A stretch of 60,846 nucleotides of DNA from an uncultured archaeon (GCA_964617945.1 CAZTXA010000001.1:1-60846), one strand, 5' to 3'. Shown: positions 5,086 to 12,833, numbered from the stretch's first letter. A program made the numbers and translations. Notes: generated from the sequence alone by a model not told the origin.

Positions 5086-5721
5086 TCACCCGACCACGCA
5101 CTGGATCGGCTGGTCCTGCAACGCGTCACAGATGAACGATCCGAGCTCGTCGCGGTCCACGGTTTCAAGCCGGAGCGGGCCGCGCTGGAACCCTGTCGCG
5201 GCGACCCTGTCGTCCATGTCCGGGTACGGCGCCACATACACCCACGTCCTGTCCGAGTTGTACGTCGAGGCGATGTCTGACAATGCTGCGACAGTGTCCG
5301 GGCAGTCGCTGCAGCTGTACTGCAGCAGCACGGACTGCTGCGTCAACAGGTACAGCTGGACATCCTCGGACAGCGGGGTATCCGAAACAGCGCTGGCCGG
5401 TAGATCAGCCTCGCTTACCCGTGGGATGTCGCCTTGAGACTGGATGGTGTATCCGACCGGCGGCGACGGCTCCCTGGACGACGCCCCGCCGGACCCGCCC
5501 GGACTGCCAGGGGAGAGGGAGGAGGCGAAGAACACTGTTCCCATGAACAGGGTCGCCATCAGGAACACCCCGCCGAGCACGGCGAACTGTTTCAACGTGA
5601 GGTCCGGGACCGTGAACTGCAGGCCCTGGAGACGGCTGCGGTCACTGTCATGTTCGTGCTCGTCCCGCGCCTCCTTGCTCTTGAATACTTCGCCGCACGC
5701 GTCACAGACGTACCGGGGCAT
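5086..5721 (-). CDS. membrane protein: N-terminal C2H2-like zinc knuckle, one TM helix, extracytoplasmic DUF3105-like domain
   Basis: Start ATG 5721 (MPRYVCDACGEVFKSKEARDEHEH). TM helix FAVLGGVFLMATLFMGTVFFA. The C-terminal part (LLQYSCSDCPDTVAALSDIAS...WVYVAPYPDMDDRVAATGF...DRDELGSFI) resembles DUF3105. The family assignment is tentative. Confidence 0.6.
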   Translation of the reverse strand: MPRYVCDACGEVFKSKEARDEHEHDSDRSRLQGLQFTVPDLTLKQFAVLGGVFLMATLFMGTVFFASSLSPGSPGGSGGASSREPSPPVGYTIQSQGDIPRVSEADLPASAVSDTPLSEDVQLYLLTQQSVLLQYSCSDCPDTVAALSDIASTYNSDRTWVYVAPYPDMDDRVAATGFQRGPLRLETVDRDELGSFICDALQDQPIQCVVG

Positions 5722-5776: not shown

Positions 5777-6298
5777 ATGCAGAACGAGTACGTGGCGGCC
5801 GGTGCCGCCGCAGTCATCGTCGCGGTTGCAGCCGGGATTCTTGTCGGAGAAGTTATCGTGGACCGGCAGGCATCGACCCGCGACGCCATCGGCCAGCCCG
5901 GTTCCACCCATCTTCATGCCAGCTTCGCCGTCACCGTCAACGGTTCGGAGAAGGGGCTGGGCGGGCCGTACATCGAGCGCGCTGCACGGGCGCACCTCCA
6001 CGACACAGATAACGTGCTGCACGTCCATGCCGAGAACGTCGATCTTGACTATGCGCTCCGCACCCTCGCCATCGGCGTCAACCAGTCATGCCTCCAGTTC
6101 ACCCCGGAGAACGAGACCGTGTGCGGCGGGCAGGCCGGCATACGGGTGAACGGGGAGCAGGTGGCGGTCGAGGACGCGCTGGACAGGGATATCAGGCAGG
6201 GAGACAGCATCGTCGTCTGGGTCGGTGACCCGCCGGAGGGCCTGGACCTGGAACTGCCGCCCGCGTACCAGGAATCCGTGCCGGGGCAGAGCGTGTAA
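5777..6298 (+). CDS. membrane-anchored extracytoplasmic His-rich domain protein (paralogue 1 of 3, uncharacterised family)
   Basis: Start ATG 5777 (MQNEYVAAGAAAVIVAVAAGILV, a TM helix). GSTHLHASFAVTVNG...AHLHD...LHVHAENV...GVNQSCL...C...IRVNGEQV...IRQGDSIVVWVGD aligns with the CDSs at 10230 and 10941. Confidence 0.65.
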   Translation: MQNEYVAAGAAAVIVAVAAGILVGEVIVDRQASTRDAIGQPGSTHLHASFAVTVNGSEKGLGGPYIERAARAHLHDTDNVLHVHAENVDLDYALRTLAIGVNQSCLQFTPENETVCGGQAGIRVNGEQVAVEDALDRDIRQGDSIVVWVGDPPEGLDLELPPAYQESVPGQSV

Positions 6299-6300
6299 CC

Positions 6301-6951
6301 ATGGATACGGAAGCGGTCATATTCGACAACGACGGCGTGATAGTGGATTCCGAACAGTACTGGCGCCAGGTCGCGGTCGACCTGTTCCAGGACGCGACCG
6401 CTGAAGAGATCGATCCCACGGACGCGCTGGAGGACGCCCTCGGGATGAACTACCGCGACATCTACGACCTCTTGGCGGACCGGTACACTGTAACGATGGA
6501 CAAGGAAACATTTCTGCAGCGGTACGAAGATGCTGCCGAGCAGGTATACACGGAGAACGTTGAAATGATGGACGGATTCCACGAGCTGCTGGATACGGTG
6601 CGGGAACACGGATGCAACGTGGCGATCGCGTCGTCATCGCCGCGGCGCTGGCTGGACATGGTGGTGGACCGGTTCGACCTGGAGGTCGACGAGGTCGTGA
6701 GCGCGGACGCGTTGAAGCAGGCCGGCGACATCGACGCCGGCAAGCCTGACCCCGGCGTGTACCAGGTGACTGCGCGGCGGCTCGGGGTCGACCCGGAACG
6801 GTGTCTCGTGGTCGAGGACTCGACAAACGGTATCCGGGCGGCGAACAGGGCGGGAATGGTCTGTATCGGGTACAGGAACGAGTCGGACGAGGCGGACGCG
6901 ACAGCGGCCACGCCACAGGAACTCCGCGAGGAAATCCTGGACCGGCTGTAG
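6301..6951 (+). CDS. HAD-IA family hydrolase (phosphatase/beta-phosphoglucomutase-like)
   Basis: Motif I FDNDGV, motif II IASSS, motif III KPDPGVY, motif IV VVEDSTNGIRAANRAGM. It starts 2 nt after the upstream stop. Confidence 0.85.
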   Translation: MDTEAVIFDNDGVIVDSEQYWRQVAVDLFQDATAEEIDPTDALEDALGMNYRDIYDLLADRYTVTMDKETFLQRYEDAAEQVYTENVEMMDGFHELLDTVREHGCNVAIASSSPRRWLDMVVDRFDLEVDEVVSADALKQAGDIDAGKPDPGVYQVTARRLGVDPERCLVVEDSTNGIRAANRAGMVCIGYRNESDEADATAATPQELREEILDRL

Positions 6952-6999
6952 GAGAAGGTTTTTAACTCCCGGCCCGAACAAGGTGTGCAGTGACAGCAC

Positions 7000-7617
7000 A
7001 TGGTTGACTATGAAGAGGTTGTTGAAGGAACTATCGACGAGGTCAAGGAACAGGTCCAGGACGACGACCTCGACCCGGAGAAGGTTCTGGAGGCAGAGCA
7101 GGCGAACAAGGACCGTGTAACACTTGTCGACTGGCTTGAAGAGCGTATCGACGAAGCGGAGGAAACCGGTACAGATACGACAGATGCGGCGCCGTCCGGC
7201 GATGCCGGTGAAGGATTGCCGGGCCGCATCATCCGGGGGGCGACCAGCCACCTCTTCATCATCGGCCTCATCATCGGGGTCGCGGTCGCACTCGCTGTCG
7301 GTCCGGCCGGCGGCGGGGCCGGGATGTCTGGGGCCGCTGTCGGCGATAGCGTGGAGACATACTTCTCACAGAACGCTGACGGTGTCCCGCTGGAAGGCGT
7401 CCAGGTGCAGCAGGTCCAGCGGCTGGAGGGTTCGGACCTGTACCAGCTGGACATGGTGCTGTCCGCACAGTTCCTGAACAGGACTGTCGAACAGAACCAG
7501 ACCGCGGTCGTCTCTGCAGACGGGCGGTACATCTTCCTCAGCCAGCCGATCGACACTGAACGGCCGCTCGCCGACCAGCTCGGCGGCGCCCAGCAGACAC
7601 AGCAACAGGAGCCATGA
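7000..7617 (+). CDS. membrane-anchored protein with an acidic cytoplasmic N-terminus and an extracytoplasmic DsbC/DsbG-N-terminal-like domain (tentative)
   Basis: TM helix HLFIIGLIIGVAVALAV. The C-terminal part (LYQLDMVL...VVSADGRYIFLSQPID) resembles the DsbC/G dimerisation-domain pattern (LY.v.....vyvs.DG.y.f). Its stop overlaps the next start (ATGA at 7614). Confidence 0.55.
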   Translation: MVDYEEVVEGTIDEVKEQVQDDDLDPEKVLEAEQANKDRVTLVDWLEERIDEAEETGTDTTDAAPSGDAGEGLPGRIIRGATSHLFIIGLIIGVAVALAVGPAGGGAGMSGAAVGDSVETYFSQNADGVPLEGVQVQQVQRLEGSDLYQLDMVLSAQFLNRTVEQNQTAVVSADGRYIFLSQPIDTERPLADQLGGAQQTQQQEP

Positions 7618-8009
7618 ACCAGAACGCAGTGATTGCCGTAGCCGCCGTCGTACTTGTAGGGGTCGGCGGATACGCACTGCTCGGTGGTGGCGGCGATGGT
7701 CCGACGGGCGATATCACAGAGGAGGACCTTAACGACTTCGCCCAGTGCCTGGCAGAGAATGACGCCACGTTCTACGGCGCCTACTGGTGTCCGCACTGCA
7801 ACCAGCAGAAGGCGGTGTTCGGTGACGCGATGCAGCACGTTGACTACGTGGAGTGTTCACCGGACGGGCAGGAGGCGCCGCGCGCCGAGATCTGCGACGA
7901 GAAACAGATTGAAAGTTATCCGACGTGGATTATCGACGGCGAACGGCACACCGGGGTCCAGAGTCTGCAGGAGCTGGCCGGGGCGACCGGGTGCGAACTC
8001 CCACGATAA
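7614..8009 (+). CDS. membrane-anchored thioredoxin-like protein of the VKOR-partner type
   Basis: N-terminal TM helix. ATFYGAYWCPHCNQQKAVFG...YVECSP...C...IESYPTWIIDG..H.G...LQELA matches the Trx-like domain that is fused to VKOR in cyanobacteria and plants. Confidence 0.8.
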   Translation: MNQNAVIAVAAVVLVGVGGYALLGGGGDGPTGDITEEDLNDFAQCLAENDATFYGAYWCPHCNQQKAVFGDAMQHVDYVECSPDGQEAPRAEICDEKQIESYPTWIIDGERHTGVQSLQELAGATGCELPR

Positions 8010-8042
8010 CCGTTTTATACAGCTGGAGAACGTGATAGTGTC

Positions 8043-8537
8043 ATGGAGCGGGACACAGTCCTCCGCATCATATTGGGATTGTCCATCGTCGGGCTGGGGG
8101 TCGCGGCGTACCAGACCTACGAGCACTACTTCCTTACGACTGGTATGTGTGACCTGTCATCAACGTTCTCCTGCTCTGTCGTGACAGAGTCACGCTTCGG
8201 CGAGTTCCCGCCGAACTCCGGGATTGCGACCGCGGCGTGGGGCATGGCGTGGTGGCTTGGTGTCGCCGCACTCTCCTACACCGAGGTGAAAGGCGGTGAA
8301 TGGCTAGAAAACCAGGAGTTCTACCTGTTCTCGTATATCGCGGGCGGGATGGTGTTCGTGGTGTACCTCTTGGTGGTGGAGCTGTACATCCTTCCTGCAG
8401 AGACTGGCGCCCTGATCATCTGCCCATTCTGCACAGTCCAACACGTTATAATACTGGCACTCCTCCCGCTCTCCTACATCCGTCTGGCCAAACCGTTGAA
8501 AACATATATCGAAGACGTATTCTCCATGGAAGCGTGA
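8043..8537 (+). CDS. vitamin K epoxide reductase (VKOR) family membrane thiol oxidoreductase
   Basis: Four to five TM helices. Loop cysteines CDLSSTFSC and an in-membrane CxxC (IICPFCTVQH). TATA TTTTATA lies 24-30 nt upstream. Confidence 0.8.
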   Translation: MERDTVLRIILGLSIVGLGVAAYQTYEHYFLTTGMCDLSSTFSCSVVTESRFGEFPPNSGIATAAWGMAWWLGVAALSYTEVKGGEWLENQEFYLFSYIAGGMVFVVYLLVVELYILPAETGALIICPFCTVQHVIILALLPLSYIRLAKPLKTYIEDVFSMEA

Positions 8538-8608
8538 CCCGTGGCTGCGGTACCTGCTTGGGTAAACCATTTAACCGCAGGCTGTACAACAACGACCTGT
8601 GATACCTT

Positions 8609-8791
8609 ATGACCTTCCTAGGAACTGACGGCAAGTGCGACAACTGTGGCAAGGACCTCGACGACGTCGACGAACCAGTTACAAACAGCAACCATGAGTT
8701 CTGCGGTGTCGACTGCAAGGAAGAGTACCAGGCGGAACACGACCACGAGGATGACGGTGAAGAGGAGGCAGAGGTCTGCGAGTTCTGCTAG
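8609..8791 (+). CDS. small TRASH/zinc-ribbon-like metal-binding protein
   Basis: 60 aa with CDNC-x18-CGVDC (TRASH-like spacing), then a His/Asp/Glu-rich tail ending in CEFC. Confidence 0.5.
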   Translation: MTFLGTDGKCDNCGKDLDDVDEPVTNSNHEFCGVDCKEEYQAEHDHEDDGEEEAEVCEFC

Positions 8792-8835
8792 AACGCCGCA
8801 GGGTATATAAGAGTTCAAGTAGCCACGAAGAGACA

Positions 8836-9606
8836 ATGTCTGACGACAGTAGCGTTACACTGGAGTTCAAGACAACGCACGCCCTTTTCATGGCGTTCGT
8901 GGTCGGCGTGTTCGCCGGCGGGTTTCTCATGTCGGCAGTGACCACGGTCACAGGCCCGACAGGCGCTGCCGTCCAGGACGGACAGACCGCGCCGACACAG
9001 CCGACGGATACAGGTGACAGTCCCTCCCCGTCTGGCGATCAGGGCACTGAAACCGTCAGTATGGACCAGATAGAGCTGGAGGGAGAGCCGACCATGGGGA
9101 GCAGTGACGCGCCGGTCACCCTGGTGATGTATGAAGACTTCGAATGCCCGTTCTGCCAGCAGTTCGAGCAGAACGCGGTCCCCCAGATCGTAAGCAACTA
9201 TGTTGAATCCGGCGACGTCCGGCTGGTCTGGAAGGACTTCCCGCTGGCACAGCTCCACCCATGGGCGACACCGGCCGCGGAGGCGATGGAGTGCGTCTAC
9301 CGGCAGGACGAGGACGCGTTCTGGACGGTGAAGGACCGGATATTCGAGAACCAGAACACGCTGTCGACCAGCAATGTACAGGACCAGATCAAGTCCTGGG
9401 CCGCCGAGGAAGGCGTGTCTGAGAGCGCGGTCCAGTCGTGCATCGACAGCGGCGACGCCACACAGGAAGTCGAGGACGACCAGTCCGAGGGGCGCACCAT
9501 CGGCGTATCCGGCACACCGTCAGTGGTTGTGAACGGCGAGTTGATCGTCGGTGCACAGCCGTTCAGCCGGTTCGAATCAGCGATCGAATCGGCGCTTTCC
9601 GGATAG
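8836..9606 (+). CDS. DsbA/BdbD-family thiol:disulfide oxidoreductase, membrane-anchored
   Basis: TM helix. APVTLVMYEDFECPFCQQFEQ, WKDFPL, and the cis-Pro region GVSGTPSVVVNG. TATA TATATAA lies 26-32 nt upstream. Confidence 0.85.
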   Translation: MSDDSSVTLEFKTTHALFMAFVVGVFAGGFLMSAVTTVTGPTGAAVQDGQTAPTQPTDTGDSPSPSGDQGTETVSMDQIELEGEPTMGSSDAPVTLVMYEDFECPFCQQFEQNAVPQIVSNYVESGDVRLVWKDFPLAQLHPWATPAAEAMECVYRQDEDAFWTVKDRIFENQNTLSTSNVQDQIKSWAAEEGVSESAVQSCIDSGDATQEVEDDQSEGRTIGVSGTPSVVVNGELIVGAQPFSRFESAIESALSG

Positions 9607-9654
9607 TACCTGCAACATTTACATAGTTCTTCCAGCCACCTGTTTATACCCGAT

Positions 9655-10206
9655 ATGAAGGTCGCTGTCCCACACCCGGCCACTGCCGGTCGCCGCTTCC
9701 ACGCTGCAATCGGTGGCGTCCTCTATTCTCCGGTGTACGTTGCCGCAGCGGTTATCCTGACGGCCGCGGTGTACACGCTTTACACGCTTACAACGTTTCC
9801 CCAGTACAGCTGGCAGCTACTCTCCGCTAATCCTGTCTATATCACACAGGCGGTGTCTACACTTACTACCGGGATGTACGCCAGTATCGGGGTGCACGGT
9901 GTCCTCCTCGTGGCGGCGTACTCCGGGTTGACCGCGGTCGCCATCCTCCACGTCATCATCCAGTTCCGTACCGGTGGCCTCGCCCCCAGTCTCAGCGGTG
10001 CGGGCGGTACCAGCGGCGTCCTCCCGGTCTTCCTGGTTGGTGGCTGCGCCGGGTGTGGCGCTGGCCTCCTCGGATTATTCGGGGCCGCCGGTGCACTCGC
10101 CGTCCTCCCGTTCAACGGGAACGGGATCCGTCTCGTCAGCGTCGTCTTCCTCGTCGGCCTGCTGGGGTACGCCGGTGACCCGAGGACCTGCGATTTCGAC
10201 CGGTAA
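9655..10206 (+). CDS. polytopic membrane protein with an intramembrane CxxC (GGCAGCGAG)
   Basis: About 5 hydrophobic helices. The motif VFLVGGCAGCGAGLLGLFG sits inside a predicted helix. I do not recognise the family. Confidence 0.55.
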   Translation: MKVAVPHPATAGRRFHAAIGGVLYSPVYVAAAVILTAAVYTLYTLTTFPQYSWQLLSANPVYITQAVSTLTTGMYASIGVHGVLLVAAYSGLTAVAILHVIIQFRTGGLAPSLSGAGGTSGVLPVFLVGGCAGCGAGLLGLFGAAGALAVLPFNGNGIRLVSVVFLVGLLGYAGDPRTCDFDR

Positions 10207-10229
10207 CCGTTTAAAGGCTAAGGCGCCGG

Positions 10230-10880
10230 GTGGTAGATGTGAAATGCGATAAGTGCGGCCGACAGGTCGACTCCCGGCAGGAGGAGGTCGAACATCTTCT
10301 GGACCAGCACGACGACACGCTGACCTCCCATAAACGTGACGAGCTGAAACGGGAGCTGAACCAGATGGACAGCGGCGGCGGCCGGTCGCTGCCGCTGCGG
10401 ACGATAGGGATCGGTGTCGCAGTGCTGGCCGTCATCCTCGGCGGCGGGTTCGCACTCTCATCGGCCGGGATCGTCTCGTTCTCGGCTGGCGGGTCAAACG
10501 GGCCGACCGGGGCCGCAGTCGGTCCCGCAGGCTCCACGCACGAGCACGCCCAGTTCTCTGTGTTCGTCAACGGCGACGAGATTGACTTCTCGCAGCCCCG
10601 GTACCAGGTCGGGCAGACCCAGAACCGGCGCATCCACTTCGAGGGCGGTGACGGGTCCCGCATCCACAAGCACGCGACCGGGGTGACCGTCGGGTTCGCA
10701 CTCGAGTCTCTGGACATGGGGATCAACCAGACCTGCCTCTCTGTCCACGATGAGGTGTACTGCGAGGACGGGTCTGCGCCACTCACCGTGACGGTGAACG
10801 GGAACGAGATCGAAGATGCTGCATCACATGTCATCCGTGACGGCGAGGTCATCCGGATCGCCTACGGGGACGACGCGTAA
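10230..10880 (+). CDS. N-terminal zinc knuckle + TM + His-rich extracytoplasmic domain (paralogue 2 of 3)
   Basis: GTG start (GTG 10239 is an alternative). CDKCGRQV...VEHLLDQH, TM helix IGIGVAVLAVILGGGFAL, then GSTHEHAQFSVFVNGDEI...RIHFEG...RIHKHATGV...GINQTCL...C...VTVNGNEI...IRDGEVIRIAYGD. Confidence 0.65.
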   Translation: MVDVKCDKCGRQVDSRQEEVEHLLDQHDDTLTSHKRDELKRELNQMDSGGGRSLPLRTIGIGVAVLAVILGGGFALSSAGIVSFSAGGSNGPTGAAVGPAGSTHEHAQFSVFVNGDEIDFSQPRYQVGQTQNRRIHFEGGDGSRIHKHATGVTVGFALESLDMGINQTCLSVHDEVYCEDGSAPLTVTVNGNEIEDAASHVIRDGEVIRIAYGDDA

Positions 10881-10940
10881 CACAGCCGCAGGTTATATAG
10901 GCGTCCGACGTCACCGTGACGGTATGTCGCGAGGTGGCCG

Positions 10941-11846
10941 ATGATGCAGGTATTCCGGTACGTCCTCCTTATCTACGCAGCCGGCGTGGCAGCGGTACTG
11001 TACGCTATCGCCCGGTTCCCAGCGGCGACCTTCATCGATGCGGTCCCGGCGGTGATGAAGCTCGGCACCGTGGCACTGCTTGCCGCGGTCGCTGCCGCGT
11101 TATTCTTCAAGGACAGGGTGTCTGACCGGGGGCAGCGCATTATGATGGGGGCTATCCTCCTCATCGTCCTCGTCCCGACCCTGTACGCTGCCGGGGCGTG
11201 GATTCACGCCATGGCGACGTCGTGGAGTGGCGGCGAGGTCCACTACCACGCGGACTATGAGGTCGTGGTGCAGGACGAGAACGGTGCGTACCACCAGCTC
11301 GACCTGATCGACCCGGAGGAATTCTGCCAGCAGTCACAGCACGAGTCAACGTATATGTGCCGGTTGAACGACCGCGTCGGCACAACGGAATACCACGAGC
11401 ACAACGACCGCCGCATCCACCTCGAAGGAACGTTCAAGCAACGGGAGGACGCGACACTGGCCGCGTTCTTCGCCACGTTCGGCGGCGAACTGTCCAACGA
11501 CAGGCTGGTCTACCCGACGAACGAAGAGGATTGGACGGTGTCGGACGACGGGGAACGGACGGTTAAGATCCTGGTGAAGAAAGGTGTCGGCGGGACACGG
11601 CACTGGTGCGCCATCGGCCCGGAAGAAACTGTGACAGCGGAACAGGTATGCAACGACCCGTATACAGGGACTCCGGCGCGGTCGCCTGACCAGTACATCA
11701 TCTCACCGTTCCAGCGCGGCCCAACACTCGACGATATCTGGATTGTCTACGACAACGCGACAGTTACCGGGGCATTGAACGACCTGCAGGAAGACGACCG
11801 GTATAAACAGTTCGAACAGGAGAAGACCGGGGAGGGGTACCAGTGA
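10941..11846 (+). CDS. multi-TM protein with a divergent His-rich extracytoplasmic domain (paralogue 3 of 3)
   Basis: Three N-terminal TM helices, then EVHYHADYEVVVQDENG...EYHEHNDRRIHLEG...TLAAFFATFGG... The stop overlaps the GTG start of ccdA (GTGA at 11843). Confidence 0.6.
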   Translation: MMQVFRYVLLIYAAGVAAVLYAIARFPAATFIDAVPAVMKLGTVALLAAVAAALFFKDRVSDRGQRIMMGAILLIVLVPTLYAAGAWIHAMATSWSGGEVHYHADYEVVVQDENGAYHQLDLIDPEEFCQQSQHESTYMCRLNDRVGTTEYHEHNDRRIHLEGTFKQREDATLAAFFATFGGELSNDRLVYPTNEEDWTVSDDGERTVKILVKKGVGGTRHWCAIGPEETVTAEQVCNDPYTGTPARSPDQYIISPFQRGPTLDDIWIVYDNATVTGALNDLQEDDRYKQFEQEKTGEGYQ

Positions 11847-12553
11847 CGGCGGCAAACCTTCCGACGGTGTCCGCAGTCATCGTGACGGCAGCCGTCGACG
11901 CCATCAACCCGTGCGCGATCGGTGTCGCACTGTTGCTGGTCGCGACGATGCTCAAGCAGGGCCGCCGGAAACAGATGCTGACCGTCGGCGCACTGTACGT
12001 CGCCGCCGTCTATGCGACGTACTTCTTCGCCGGCGTCGGCATCCTCCTGTTCTTCGTGAACATCCCGGTCAAGATAGCCAACATCGTCACCGTCATCGTC
12101 GCACTGTTAGTCGTGACCGGCGGCCTCCTCGAGATAAAGGATTACTTCTGGTACGGGAAGGGGACATCGCTGATGATCCCGGAACAGTACGCGACAAAGA
12201 TTGCCGACCGGATGGAGGACCTGACCGCGCCCGCCGCCGTCTTCCTCGGCGTGTTCGTCGCGCTGGTGGAGCTGCCGTGCACCGGCGGCCCCTACCTGGC
12301 TATCCTGACGGTGATTGCACAGCAGGGCGTGAACATCTGGGCGTACGTGTTGATGGCGCTGTACAACCTGATATTCGTCGCCCCACTCATCTTCATCGTG
12401 GTCGCCGCCTACCTCGGCACATACACGGTCAGCGAGATGAAACAGTGGAAGCACATGAACCGGCCGCGGATGCGGCTCGCCGCCGGCGTCCTGATGATCC
12501 TGCTCGGCTGGGTGTTATTGGTGCTTGCGACAGGGATTATACGGTTCGGATGA
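11843..12553 (+). CDS. ccdA: CcdA/DsbD-family transmembrane thiol-disulfide electron transporter
   Basis: Six TM helices with the two family half-motifs AINPCAIG and ELPCTGGPY. Confidence 0.8.
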   Translation: MTAANLPTVSAVIVTAAVDAINPCAIGVALLLVATMLKQGRRKQMLTVGALYVAAVYATYFFAGVGILLFFVNIPVKIANIVTVIVALLVVTGGLLEIKDYFWYGKGTSLMIPEQYATKIADRMEDLTAPAAVFLGVFVALVELPCTGGPYLAILTVIAQQGVNIWAYVLMALYNLIFVAPLIFIVVAAYLGTYTVSEMKQWKHMNRPRMRLAAGVLMILLGWVLLVLATGIIRFG

Positions 12554-12557
12554 TACC

Positions 12558-12833
12558 ATGGACGTCCTCATAACACGTGACGGCGAAAAAGAGGAGTTCG
12601 ACCAGCGGAAGCTGTACTCCTCCATCTACTACCCTGCCCGCGTCGCCGAGTACGACGAACAGGCGGCGGAAGACCTGGCGGAAGATGTCTGCGAGGCTGT
12701 CGTCAACTGGATGGAGGACCAGGACGACACGGTCGTCACGTCCGAAGAGCTACGGGAGAAGACGATCGAAGAGCTGGAGGAGCGCGACGAAGAAGTCGCG
12801 TTCCTGTACGACACCCACCTCGACATCAACTAG
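12558..12833 (+). CDS. stand-alone ATP-cone domain protein
   Basis: Start ATG 12558. MDVLITRDGEKEEFDQRKLYSSIY matches the ATP-cone N-terminus (v.KRdG..e.Fd..Ki..si). Acidic tail. Confidence 0.65.
   Translation: MDVLITRDGEKEEFDQRKLYSSIYYPARVAEYDEQAAEDLAEDVCEAVVNWMEDQDDTVVTSEELREKTIEELEERDEEVAFLYDTHLDIN

Follow-up and report, generated by a model that had tools for sequence, protein, structure and literature searches.

Three paralogous genes for His-rich ectodomains

The DNA analysed here (the window) is a stretch of 60,846 nucleotides from an uncultured archaeon (GCA_964617945.1 CAZTXA010000001.1:1-60846), and the close homologues of its proteins all belong to Candidatus Nanohaloarchaea / Nanohalarchaeota. 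The source assembly consists of 88 contigs and 585 kb, with a completeness of 69%. Three genes on the plus strand, termed P1 (5777-6298; 173 amino acids (aa)), P2 (10230-10880) and P3 (10941-11846; 301 aa), lie in an island of thiol-redox genes and encode membrane-anchored proteins with His-rich ectodomains. A preliminary description of the same DNA had regarded them as a three-member paralogous family that it could not name. The three open reading frames (ORFs) are present, the motifs quoted in that description are real and conserved, and a profile search of the genome, in its 69%-complete assembly, finds P1, P2 and P3 as the sole copies of the family.

P1 and P2 are related at the level of BLASTP (36% identity over 121 residues, E 4e-17). 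P3 gives no significant BLASTP match to either of them, and profiles are required. In the profile-profile comparison that the preliminary description had proposed, hhalign aligns the profile of 78 P1/P2-type ectodomains with that of 82 P3-type ectodomains over 119 columns with a probability of 98.1% (E 8e-14). The P1/P2 profile also picks P3-type ORFs of approximately 290-303 aa in three other genomes (E 4e-4 to 1e-3). In addition, homologues encoded next to CopA bridge the two types in plain phmmer searches, since they match both P2 (1e-19 to 2e-23) and P3 (5e-8 to 6e-6). From these BLASTP, profile-profile and bridging matches, P1, P2 and P3 are judged to be anciently diverged paralogues, of which P3 is the divergent one, and the family of three stands. 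The family is defined in this analysis by two profiles, A2 and A6; A2 scores P1 at E 4.5e-48 and P2 at E 8e-62.

In a maximum-likelihood tree, P1 and P2 each fall in a clade with their positional orthologues (support 99/94 and 94/90, respectively), those of P1 coming from three other genera. The P3 clade is sister to the clade of the CopA-adjacent homologues, with support of 99/98. Homologues from Halosegnis and other Halobacteriales (P0144 and P0124) are also placed in the nanohaloarchaeal P2 clade (94/90). Haloarchaea are the hosts on which Nanohaloarchaeota are described to live, and genes may therefore have been transferred between the two lineages.

An N-terminal membrane anchor had been assigned to each protein. 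This assignment is correct in outline, but the anchors are not alike. P1 starts with a hydrophobic stretch, read from the sequence, that would form one transmembrane (TM) helix. In P2, a single TM helix (approximately residues 57-83) is modelled, and a cytoplasmic C2H2 zinc finger formed by C6, C9, H22 and H27 precedes it. The anchor of P3 is composed of three TM helices in the AlphaFold model. The true start of P2 is probably GTG 10239 and not GTG 10230, because the homologues and the database copy (213 aa) begin with MKCDKCG. The predicted topology places the ectodomains outside the cell, judging from the cytoplasmic zinc finger, the positively charged loop between TM2 and TM3, and the conserved Cys pairs of disulfide type. 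The combination of a C2H2 zinc finger and a TM anchor is reused in the phylum on at least five ectodomains, namely DsbA, DUF3105-like, redoxin-DUF3105, cupredoxin and His-rich domains (examples are window 5086-5721 and 10230-10400, P0145, L103:5460-6044 and L103:9632-10756). This reuse suggests that the zinc-finger anchor is a docking or sorting module common to redox and copper proteins of the envelope.

The ectodomains share a cluster of six positions with the pattern HxH, H-x-(E/H) and H-x-(H/E). In P1 (plus strand, 5909-6028), the cluster is formed by HLH at 5909-5917, HLH at 5993-6001 and HVH at 6020-6028, and the protein is thus a six-His variant (H45, H47, H73, H75, H82 and H84; HHHHHH), in which all but H75 occupy invariant columns of alignment A2. 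In P2 (plus strand, 10539-10673), HEH at 10539-10547, H-F-E at 10635-10643 and H-K-H at 10665-10673 provide H104, H106, H136, E138, H146 and H148 (HHHEHH). The cluster residues in P3 are H101, H103, H152, H154, H160 and E162 (HH, HH and HE), and in P3-type sequences all six, together with E153, are invariant. When the hairpin strands are aligned by their geometry, as judged from the strand positions in the models, H-x-E and H-x-H of P2 appear to correspond to H-x-H and H-x-E of P3, so that the same five His residues and one Glu residue would be used with the Glu residue on the other strand. Such a shift fits an arrangement in which six side chains face one site.

Conservation was evaluated with 149 representatives at pairwise identity of 50% or less (P2 numbering). 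H104 and H106 are present in 100% of them, H146 and H148 in 99% and H136 in 96%, while position 138 is Glu in 86% and His in 13%. The HHHEHH pattern is found in 122 representatives and HHHHHH in 20. The metal site or redox-linked role suggested in the preliminary description is supported by this retention of the His residues, the loss of which in homologues would have spoken against it.

The Cys pair was part of the same suggestion, and this part probably does not hold. The pair (Cys105/Cys116 in P1; Cys169/Cys178 in P2) is complete in 136 of the 149 representatives (91%) and both residues are absent in the rest; the haloarchaeal members have lost it and keep every His residue. Because the two Cys residues come and go together and their loss leaves the His residues in place, the pair probably forms a structural disulfide outside the ligand set. 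The P3 ectodomain further contains two inserts with extra Cys pairs, C129/C140 and C223/C237.

The AlphaFold2 model of P2, calculated from a 37-sequence alignment, has a mean predicted local distance difference test score (pLDDT) of 89.1, with values of 96-98 over most of the ectodomain and lower ones at residues 121-140. In the cluster region, the pLDDT is 96-97 and strands are found at residues 105-113, 135-138 and 144-147. The ectodomain is confidently modelled as a beta-grasp fold, in which the predicted metal site would consist of the HxH motif on the first strand and the H-x-E/H and H-x-H/E motifs on an inserted hairpin. A Foldseek search of the P2 model against the PDB gives beta-grasp domains only, with weak scores (E 1e-2 to 3e-2, target TM-score 0.45-0.58). 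The best ones are the beta-domains of transcobalamin, intrinsic factor and haptocorrin and 3u7z, a DUF4430 structure deposited as a putative metal-binding protein, and SAMP1, MoaD, ThiS and Urm1 are found further down. The P3 model has a pLDDT of 80.6 and combines the three TM helices with a beta domain.

Searches of Pfam, NCBIfam and PDB sequences with P1-P3 and the 37-homologue alignment give no match to the ectodomain. Apart from the C2H2 finger at the N-terminus, the library searches gave nothing but ThiS/MoaD/RodZ_C matches below threshold, the homologues are named only 'hypothetical protein' in the databases, and literature searches found no paper on the His-rich domain. The family is thus undescribed in the libraries and literature searched; the preliminary description had not recognised it either. 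Several known families were considered. For the DUF4430 or transcobalamin-like group, to which the P2 model has the weak fold similarity described above, there is no Pfam match of P1-P3 or the 37 homologues at the level of hidden Markov models (HMMs). Three others were rejected. A ThiS/MoaD/ubiquitin-like modifier is excluded by the score for TIGR01687 (13.5 bits against a cut-off of 49.5) and by the lack of a C-terminal Gly-Gly, P2 ending in ...AYGDDA and P1 in ...PGQSV. The known copper chaperones CopC, PCuAC, Sco, CusF, CueP and YcnI give neither a Pfam/NCBIfam match nor a PDB sequence match. Finally, a cupin metal site (HxH...E...H) disagrees with the predicted beta-grasp fold, and no match to the cupin fold or to a Cupin HMM was obtained.

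The family is large. When 1.84 billion representatives were searched exhaustively with an HMM, 2,242 clusters (50% identity) were obtained at E<=1e-3, 1,191 at <=1e-10 and 373 at <=1e-30. It is carried by many Nitrosopumilaceae, Aenigmatarchaeota, Nanohaloarchaeota and Halobacteriales and also, among others, by a Woesearchaeote, by Norongarragalinales and by a Paceibacterota bacterium. Of 70 Nanohaloarchaeota genomes, 46 have P1/P2-type and 26 have P3-type genes. In some members, the domain forms the C-terminal module of a large secreted protein that also contains propeller, BNR, TIMP or matrixin domains, an arrangement that indicates an extracellular location only.

Thiol-redox partners and gene order

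Each paralogue is encoded next to a protein with a Cys pair. The partner of P1 is encoded divergently on the minus strand (5086-5721) and combines a C2H2 zinc finger and a TM helix with an ectodomain that resembles DUF3105 and contains a CxxC motif (CSDC) and a C-terminal Cys pair. Its match to Pfam DUF3105 (E 2.5e-4, 21.5 bits) is below the cut-off of 25 and covers profile positions 49-118 only. It lacks the HxxEHG segment of the bona fide DUF3105 protein in genome G052 and has the CxxC motif instead.

The P2 module opens with a DsbA-family thiol-disulfide oxidoreductase (8836-9606, plus strand; Pfam Thioredoxin_4 9e-35, DSBA 2e-19), followed by a polytopic membrane protein of 183 aa with an intramembrane CxxC motif, CAGC (9655-10206, plus strand), and then P2. 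The 183-aa protein has no Pfam match. Its family, found in 62 of the 70 Nanohaloarchaeota genomes, is more frequent there than the His-rich family. In Aenigmatarchaeota, a 150-aa protein occupies the same place between DsbA and the family gene, and thus an intramembrane-CxxC protein sits between the two in two DPANN phyla. The 183-aa and 150-aa proteins are likely to be homologous on the basis of hhalign, which gives a probability of 69% and E 4e-5 with shallow profiles in which CxxC is invariant. These intramembrane-CxxC proteins, with CAGC or CPAC, represent an unannotated family in their own right (window 9655-10206; L031:4476-4922; L036:3831-4280; L023:2256-2717), which may act in the manner of DsbB/VKOR or conduct copper. 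A DUF8056 protein encoded next to the Halosegnis member was considered as a relative of the 183-aa protein and is unrelated.

The P3 module comprises P3, a CcdA-like membrane protein (11843-12553, plus strand) directly 3' of it, and a stand-alone ATP-cone protein (12558-12833, plus strand). The CcdA-like protein has two Cys residues in 'PC' motifs (NPCA and LPCTGGPY), read in the sequence, and matches Pfam SfLAP at 7e-10 (39.1 bits, cut-off 35) and DsbD_TM at 6.5e-5 (22.8 bits, below the cut-off of 27.1). The stop codon of P3 (TGA, 11844-11846) overlaps the GTG start codon at 11843 as GTGA, and the translational coupling to ccdA put forward in the preliminary description is therefore plausible, although the partner can be called only CcdA-like because of the sub-threshold DsbD_TM score. 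An orthologous CcdA-like gene (E<=1e-72) is found in 24 of the 70 genomes, and in each of the 24 it immediately follows P3 on the same strand, with gaps of approximately 0-250 nucleotides between the matched segments. The triad of P3, CcdA-like and ATP-cone genes is shared by six other loci (L007, L008, L009, L094, L095 and L096). The small ATP-cone protein (approximately 90 aa) always follows the CcdA-like gene, even in L008, a very distant contig. A nucleotide-sensing domain is thereby tied to a membrane thiol conduit. The order on L008 is Fur-family regulator, P3, CcdA, ATP-cone, VKOR, AhpC and SOD.

The three modules also form a compact eight-gene cluster in three other genera (L094, L095 and L009). 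There, the DUF3105-like gene is divergent from P1, which is followed by P3, the CcdA-like gene, the ATP-cone gene, DsbA, the CxxC membrane protein and P2. Both the divergent DUF3105-like/P1 pairing and the order of DsbA, CxxC membrane protein and P2 are kept in these genera. The window contains a rearranged form of this cluster with the same modules in a different order, the P3 triad following P2 in the window and preceding DsbA in the compact cluster.

Between the P1 and P2 modules, all on the plus strand, the window carries a HAD hydrolase (6301-6951), a TM protein of 205 aa (7000-7617), a thioredoxin-like CxxC protein (7614-8009) and VKOR (8043-8537). The last three (7000-8537) are absent between the P1 and P2 modules in the compact cluster. 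In other genera, longer DsbA proteins of approximately 350 aa have an N-terminal half that is homologous to the 205-aa TM protein (L094:8840-9886; L009:7407-8474). In the window, this protein is encoded by a separate gene, the stop codon of which overlaps the beginning of the thioredoxin-like gene (7614).

Similar neighbours are also found in other phyla. At 19 loci from six lineages, Thioredoxin_4/DSBA is the family encountered most often among the neighbours (11 of 126 ORFs), and DsbA is adjacent to or overlaps a family gene in Paceibacterota (overlap), Aenigmatarchaeota, Nanohaloarchaeota and Norongarragalinales. One locus in Aenigmatarchaeota has a thioredoxin-like gene and a DsbD_TM gene in front of the family gene, and in another archaeon a double thioredoxin protein is encoded upstream. 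Among ten mid-sized representatives, three are fusion proteins that combine a TM anchor, a redoxin of the TlpA/ResA type (WCxxC) and the His-rich domain. The conserved partners, the DsbA neighbours in other phyla and the fusions together make a functional link to thiol-disulfide proteins well supported, and this link reaches beyond local synteny. The co-occurrence with DsbA, CcdA and DUF3105 that the preliminary description proposed to examine is accordingly seen as conserved synteny in several phyla, in addition to the domain fusions.

Copper contexts and candidate functions

In three genera of the same phylum, a His-rich gene is followed on the same strand by a gene for a small TM protein and by CopA, and these genes are divergent from that for a PadR-type regulator with a Cys-rich tail; one of these CopA-operon loci also carries DUF305. 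In G052, a zinc-finger-anchored cupredoxin is encoded between DsbA and the His-rich gene, with two CopA genes within 13 kb. In two related loci of Aenigmatarchaeota, CopA is located upstream of DsbA, the CxxC protein and the family gene. These CopA operons, the cupredoxin and DUF305 contexts, and the sister relationship of P3 to the CopA-adjacent clade point to copper as the best-supported metal, though the site of five His residues and one Glu residue is not diagnostic. The PadR-type regulators have the pattern CxHCxC ... CCxHC in their C-terminal tails (L099:4211-4657, L100:5935-6372 and L101:6044-6445) and are probably copper sensors of an undescribed type.

The reading that we favor, with confidence that falls somewhat short of even, is that the family provides an extracytoplasmic metal site, probably for copper, which acts with envelope thiol-disulfide proteins, each paralogue having its own Cys-pair partner. 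P1 would work with the zinc-finger-anchored DUF3105-like CxxC protein, P2 with DsbA and the intramembrane-CxxC protein, and P3 with the CcdA-like transmembrane thiol conduit. The His site would capture copper at the cell surface or pass it on, and the partner thiols would set the redox state of copper, of the cysteines of the domain itself, or of both. CcdA may keep the extra Cys pairs of P3 reduced. The strict coupling to the CcdA-like gene and the two extra conserved Cys pairs suggest that P3 is a direct redox client, and the pair of DsbA and the CxxC membrane protein suggests that P2 is part of a relay that oxidises or handles copper. The analysis establishes the homology, the fold class, the conservation of the residues, the synteny, the fusions and the presence of sister subfamilies in copper operons, whereas it is inferred that the site binds a metal, that this metal is copper and which way copper or electrons would pass. 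The task itself would be a known one, that of an envelope metallochaperone or a Dsb-system partner, carried out with a different predicted fold and site.

Several observations weigh against this reading. The window contains no copper gene, and neither a P1B ATPase nor an HMA domain is found in the 69%-complete assembly. The incompleteness is the likely reason for the missing CopA, because CopA is present in all three congeners and in 41 of the 70 genomes of the phylum. The five His residues and the Glu residue would also suit Ni, Zn, Fe or Co, the Met and Cys ligands typical of Cu(I) sites are absent, and an NRAMP gene is the neighbour at one locus (L026). The loci in Halosegnis, in the Woesearchaeote and on one unassigned contig have no redox or metal neighbours. 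As for the structure, the Foldseek matches of P2 are weak (E approximately 1e-2), the His hairpin of P3 is modelled at low confidence and the full-length P3 model has no significant Foldseek match.

One alternative concerns the choice of metal, namely that Zn, Ni, Fe, Mn or Co is bound for uptake, for buffering or in a structural role, and that the copper contexts are special to some subfamilies. Six ligands with N and O donors are suitable for octahedral Ni(II), Co(II), Fe(II) or Zn(II), and the NRAMP neighbour, the Fur-family regulator next to the distant P3-type gene on L008 and the lack of a copper gene in the window are all in agreement with it. Nevertheless, where specific metal genes recur beside family members, they are always copper genes (CopA in two phyla, cupredoxin and DUF305); the sister group of P3 is the CopA-adjacent clade, and the thiol-redox partners and the TlpA/Sco-like fusions suit copper biology. 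We regard another metal as unlikely. It is also conceivable that the proteins are ordinary clients of the disulfide machinery and that the His cluster serves an unrelated purpose, such as that of a metallo-hydrolase or, in the manner of transcobalamin-like SLBB domains, of a binding site for a soluble ligand. The co-varying ectodomain Cys pair with its 91% conservation, the two further conserved pairs in P3, the ligand-binding beta-domains of cobalamin carriers as the nearest folds and the position of some members at the C-termini of large secreted proteins, which also have propeller, BNR or matrixin domains, can be understood in this way. The haloarchaeal members without the Cys pair, however, retain every His residue, no DUF4430 or other ligand-domain HMM matches, and simple clients are normally neither fused to TlpA-like redoxins nor adjacent to a CcdA-like gene in 24 of 24 cases. 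This explanation is quite improbable.

Another explanation keeps a metal in the His cluster and changes its function. A redox-active metal (Cu or Fe) could act as an electron carrier or terminal oxidant, electrons passing from DsbA through the CxxC protein to the His-rich protein, so that DsbA is reoxidised without quinone; with CcdA, the flow would be reversed. This would account for the order of DsbA, CxxC membrane protein and His-rich gene in two DPANN phyla and for the DsbA gene overlapping the family gene in Paceibacterota. The cupredoxin between DsbA and the His-rich gene in G052 is a dedicated electron carrier, and the distant P3-type locus lies in a cluster of Fur-family, CcdA, VKOR, AhpC and SOD genes. 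The lineages in question are described as having neither respiratory chains nor quinone synthesis, and plant-type [2Fe-2S] ferredoxins are an established case of a redox metal centre in a beta-grasp fold, both of which count in its favor. With VKOR in the window and DsbB beside DsbA in Ca. Nanohalococcus, however, a replacement oxidant is not obviously needed. Moreover, the CxxC membrane protein has a wider distribution than the His-rich family (62 versus 46 of the 70 genomes), many carriers of the family are reported anaerobes, and the electron acceptor is without support. Reoxidation of DsbA through the His cluster is, in our judgment, rather unlikely. A bolder form, in which the His-rich metal centre and the intramembrane-CxxC protein (with cupredoxin in some cases) constitute a new quinone-independent DsbA-reoxidising machine that runs in reverse with CcdA, is doubtful. 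If it were true, oxidative protein folding would be explained in ultra-small archaea and bacteria that are described as having no respiratory chain.

Should the copper-binding site outside the membrane be real, the family would be a major unrecognised class of cell-surface copper proteins, with more than 2,000 sequence clusters, in ammonia-oxidising archaea and many DPANN and candidate phyla radiation (CPR) organisms. The metabolism of ammonia-oxidising archaea is known to depend heavily on copper. The pairing with DsbA, CcdA-like, TlpA-like and intramembrane-CxxC proteins would point to an undescribed link between copper and disulfides in cells with minimal genomes. What the window adds is the three-module anatomy, the P3-CcdA pairing in 24/24 genomes, the fusions and the tree. 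The nanohaloarchaeal island provides a clean experimental entry, since it offers three paralogues with three distinct partners and small soluble ectodomains.

Comparison with known systems

The best fold matches of P2 are the transcobalamin/intrinsic factor beta-domains and DUF4430 (2pmv, 4kki and 3u7z), at Foldseek E of approximately 1e-2 and target TM-scores of up to 0.58. These domains differ from the family in that there is no sequence signal, they have no His hairpin insert, and they bind corrinoids or unknown ligands. ThiS, MoaD and SAMP resemble the ectodomain in fold class, with sub-threshold HMM matches over the C-terminal 'VNG ... GD.I.I' segment. They are cytoplasmic and have a C-terminal Gly-Gly, whereas the ectodomains described here are predicted to be extracytoplasmic, have no GG tail and carry the His cluster.

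CopC/PcoC with CopD (YobA-YebZ), and YcnI, combine a small extracytoplasmic Cu(II)-binding beta domain with His ligands and a polytopic membrane protein, an arrangement to which the present family and its membrane partners would correspond, and some members of the family are also located in cop operons. CopC is, however, a cupredoxin-like beta-sandwich with a His brace at the mature N-terminus, while the present family has a predicted beta-grasp fold, an internal cluster and membrane partners with Cys pairs.

The closest parallel is found in teams of copper-binding and thiol-redox proteins. In the account given in a review, ScsB and ScsC bind copper and pass Cu(I) to CueP (PMC10907172, citing Subedi et al. 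2019), and CcdA/TlpA act with ScoI/PcuC (PCuAC) in CuA assembly (PMC6669012). Both ScsB/ScsC-CueP of Salmonella and CcdA/TlpA-ScoI/PcuC (PMC10907172, PMC6669012, PMC7558416) combine an extracytoplasmic copper-binding protein, a DsbD/CcdA-type conduit and a thioredoxin-fold protein at one locus. P1-P3 are related to CueP, Sco or PCuAC neither in sequence nor in fold; His and Glu are proposed as ligands instead of Cys and Met, and the proteins have membrane anchors, to which a cytoplasmic zinc finger is added in some of them. As the hosts are reported not to respire, CuA assembly would not be the purpose here. By analogy with these teams, the matching features would be P3 followed by the CcdA-like gene, the DsbA, CxxC protein and P2 series, and the fusions with TlpA-like redoxins.

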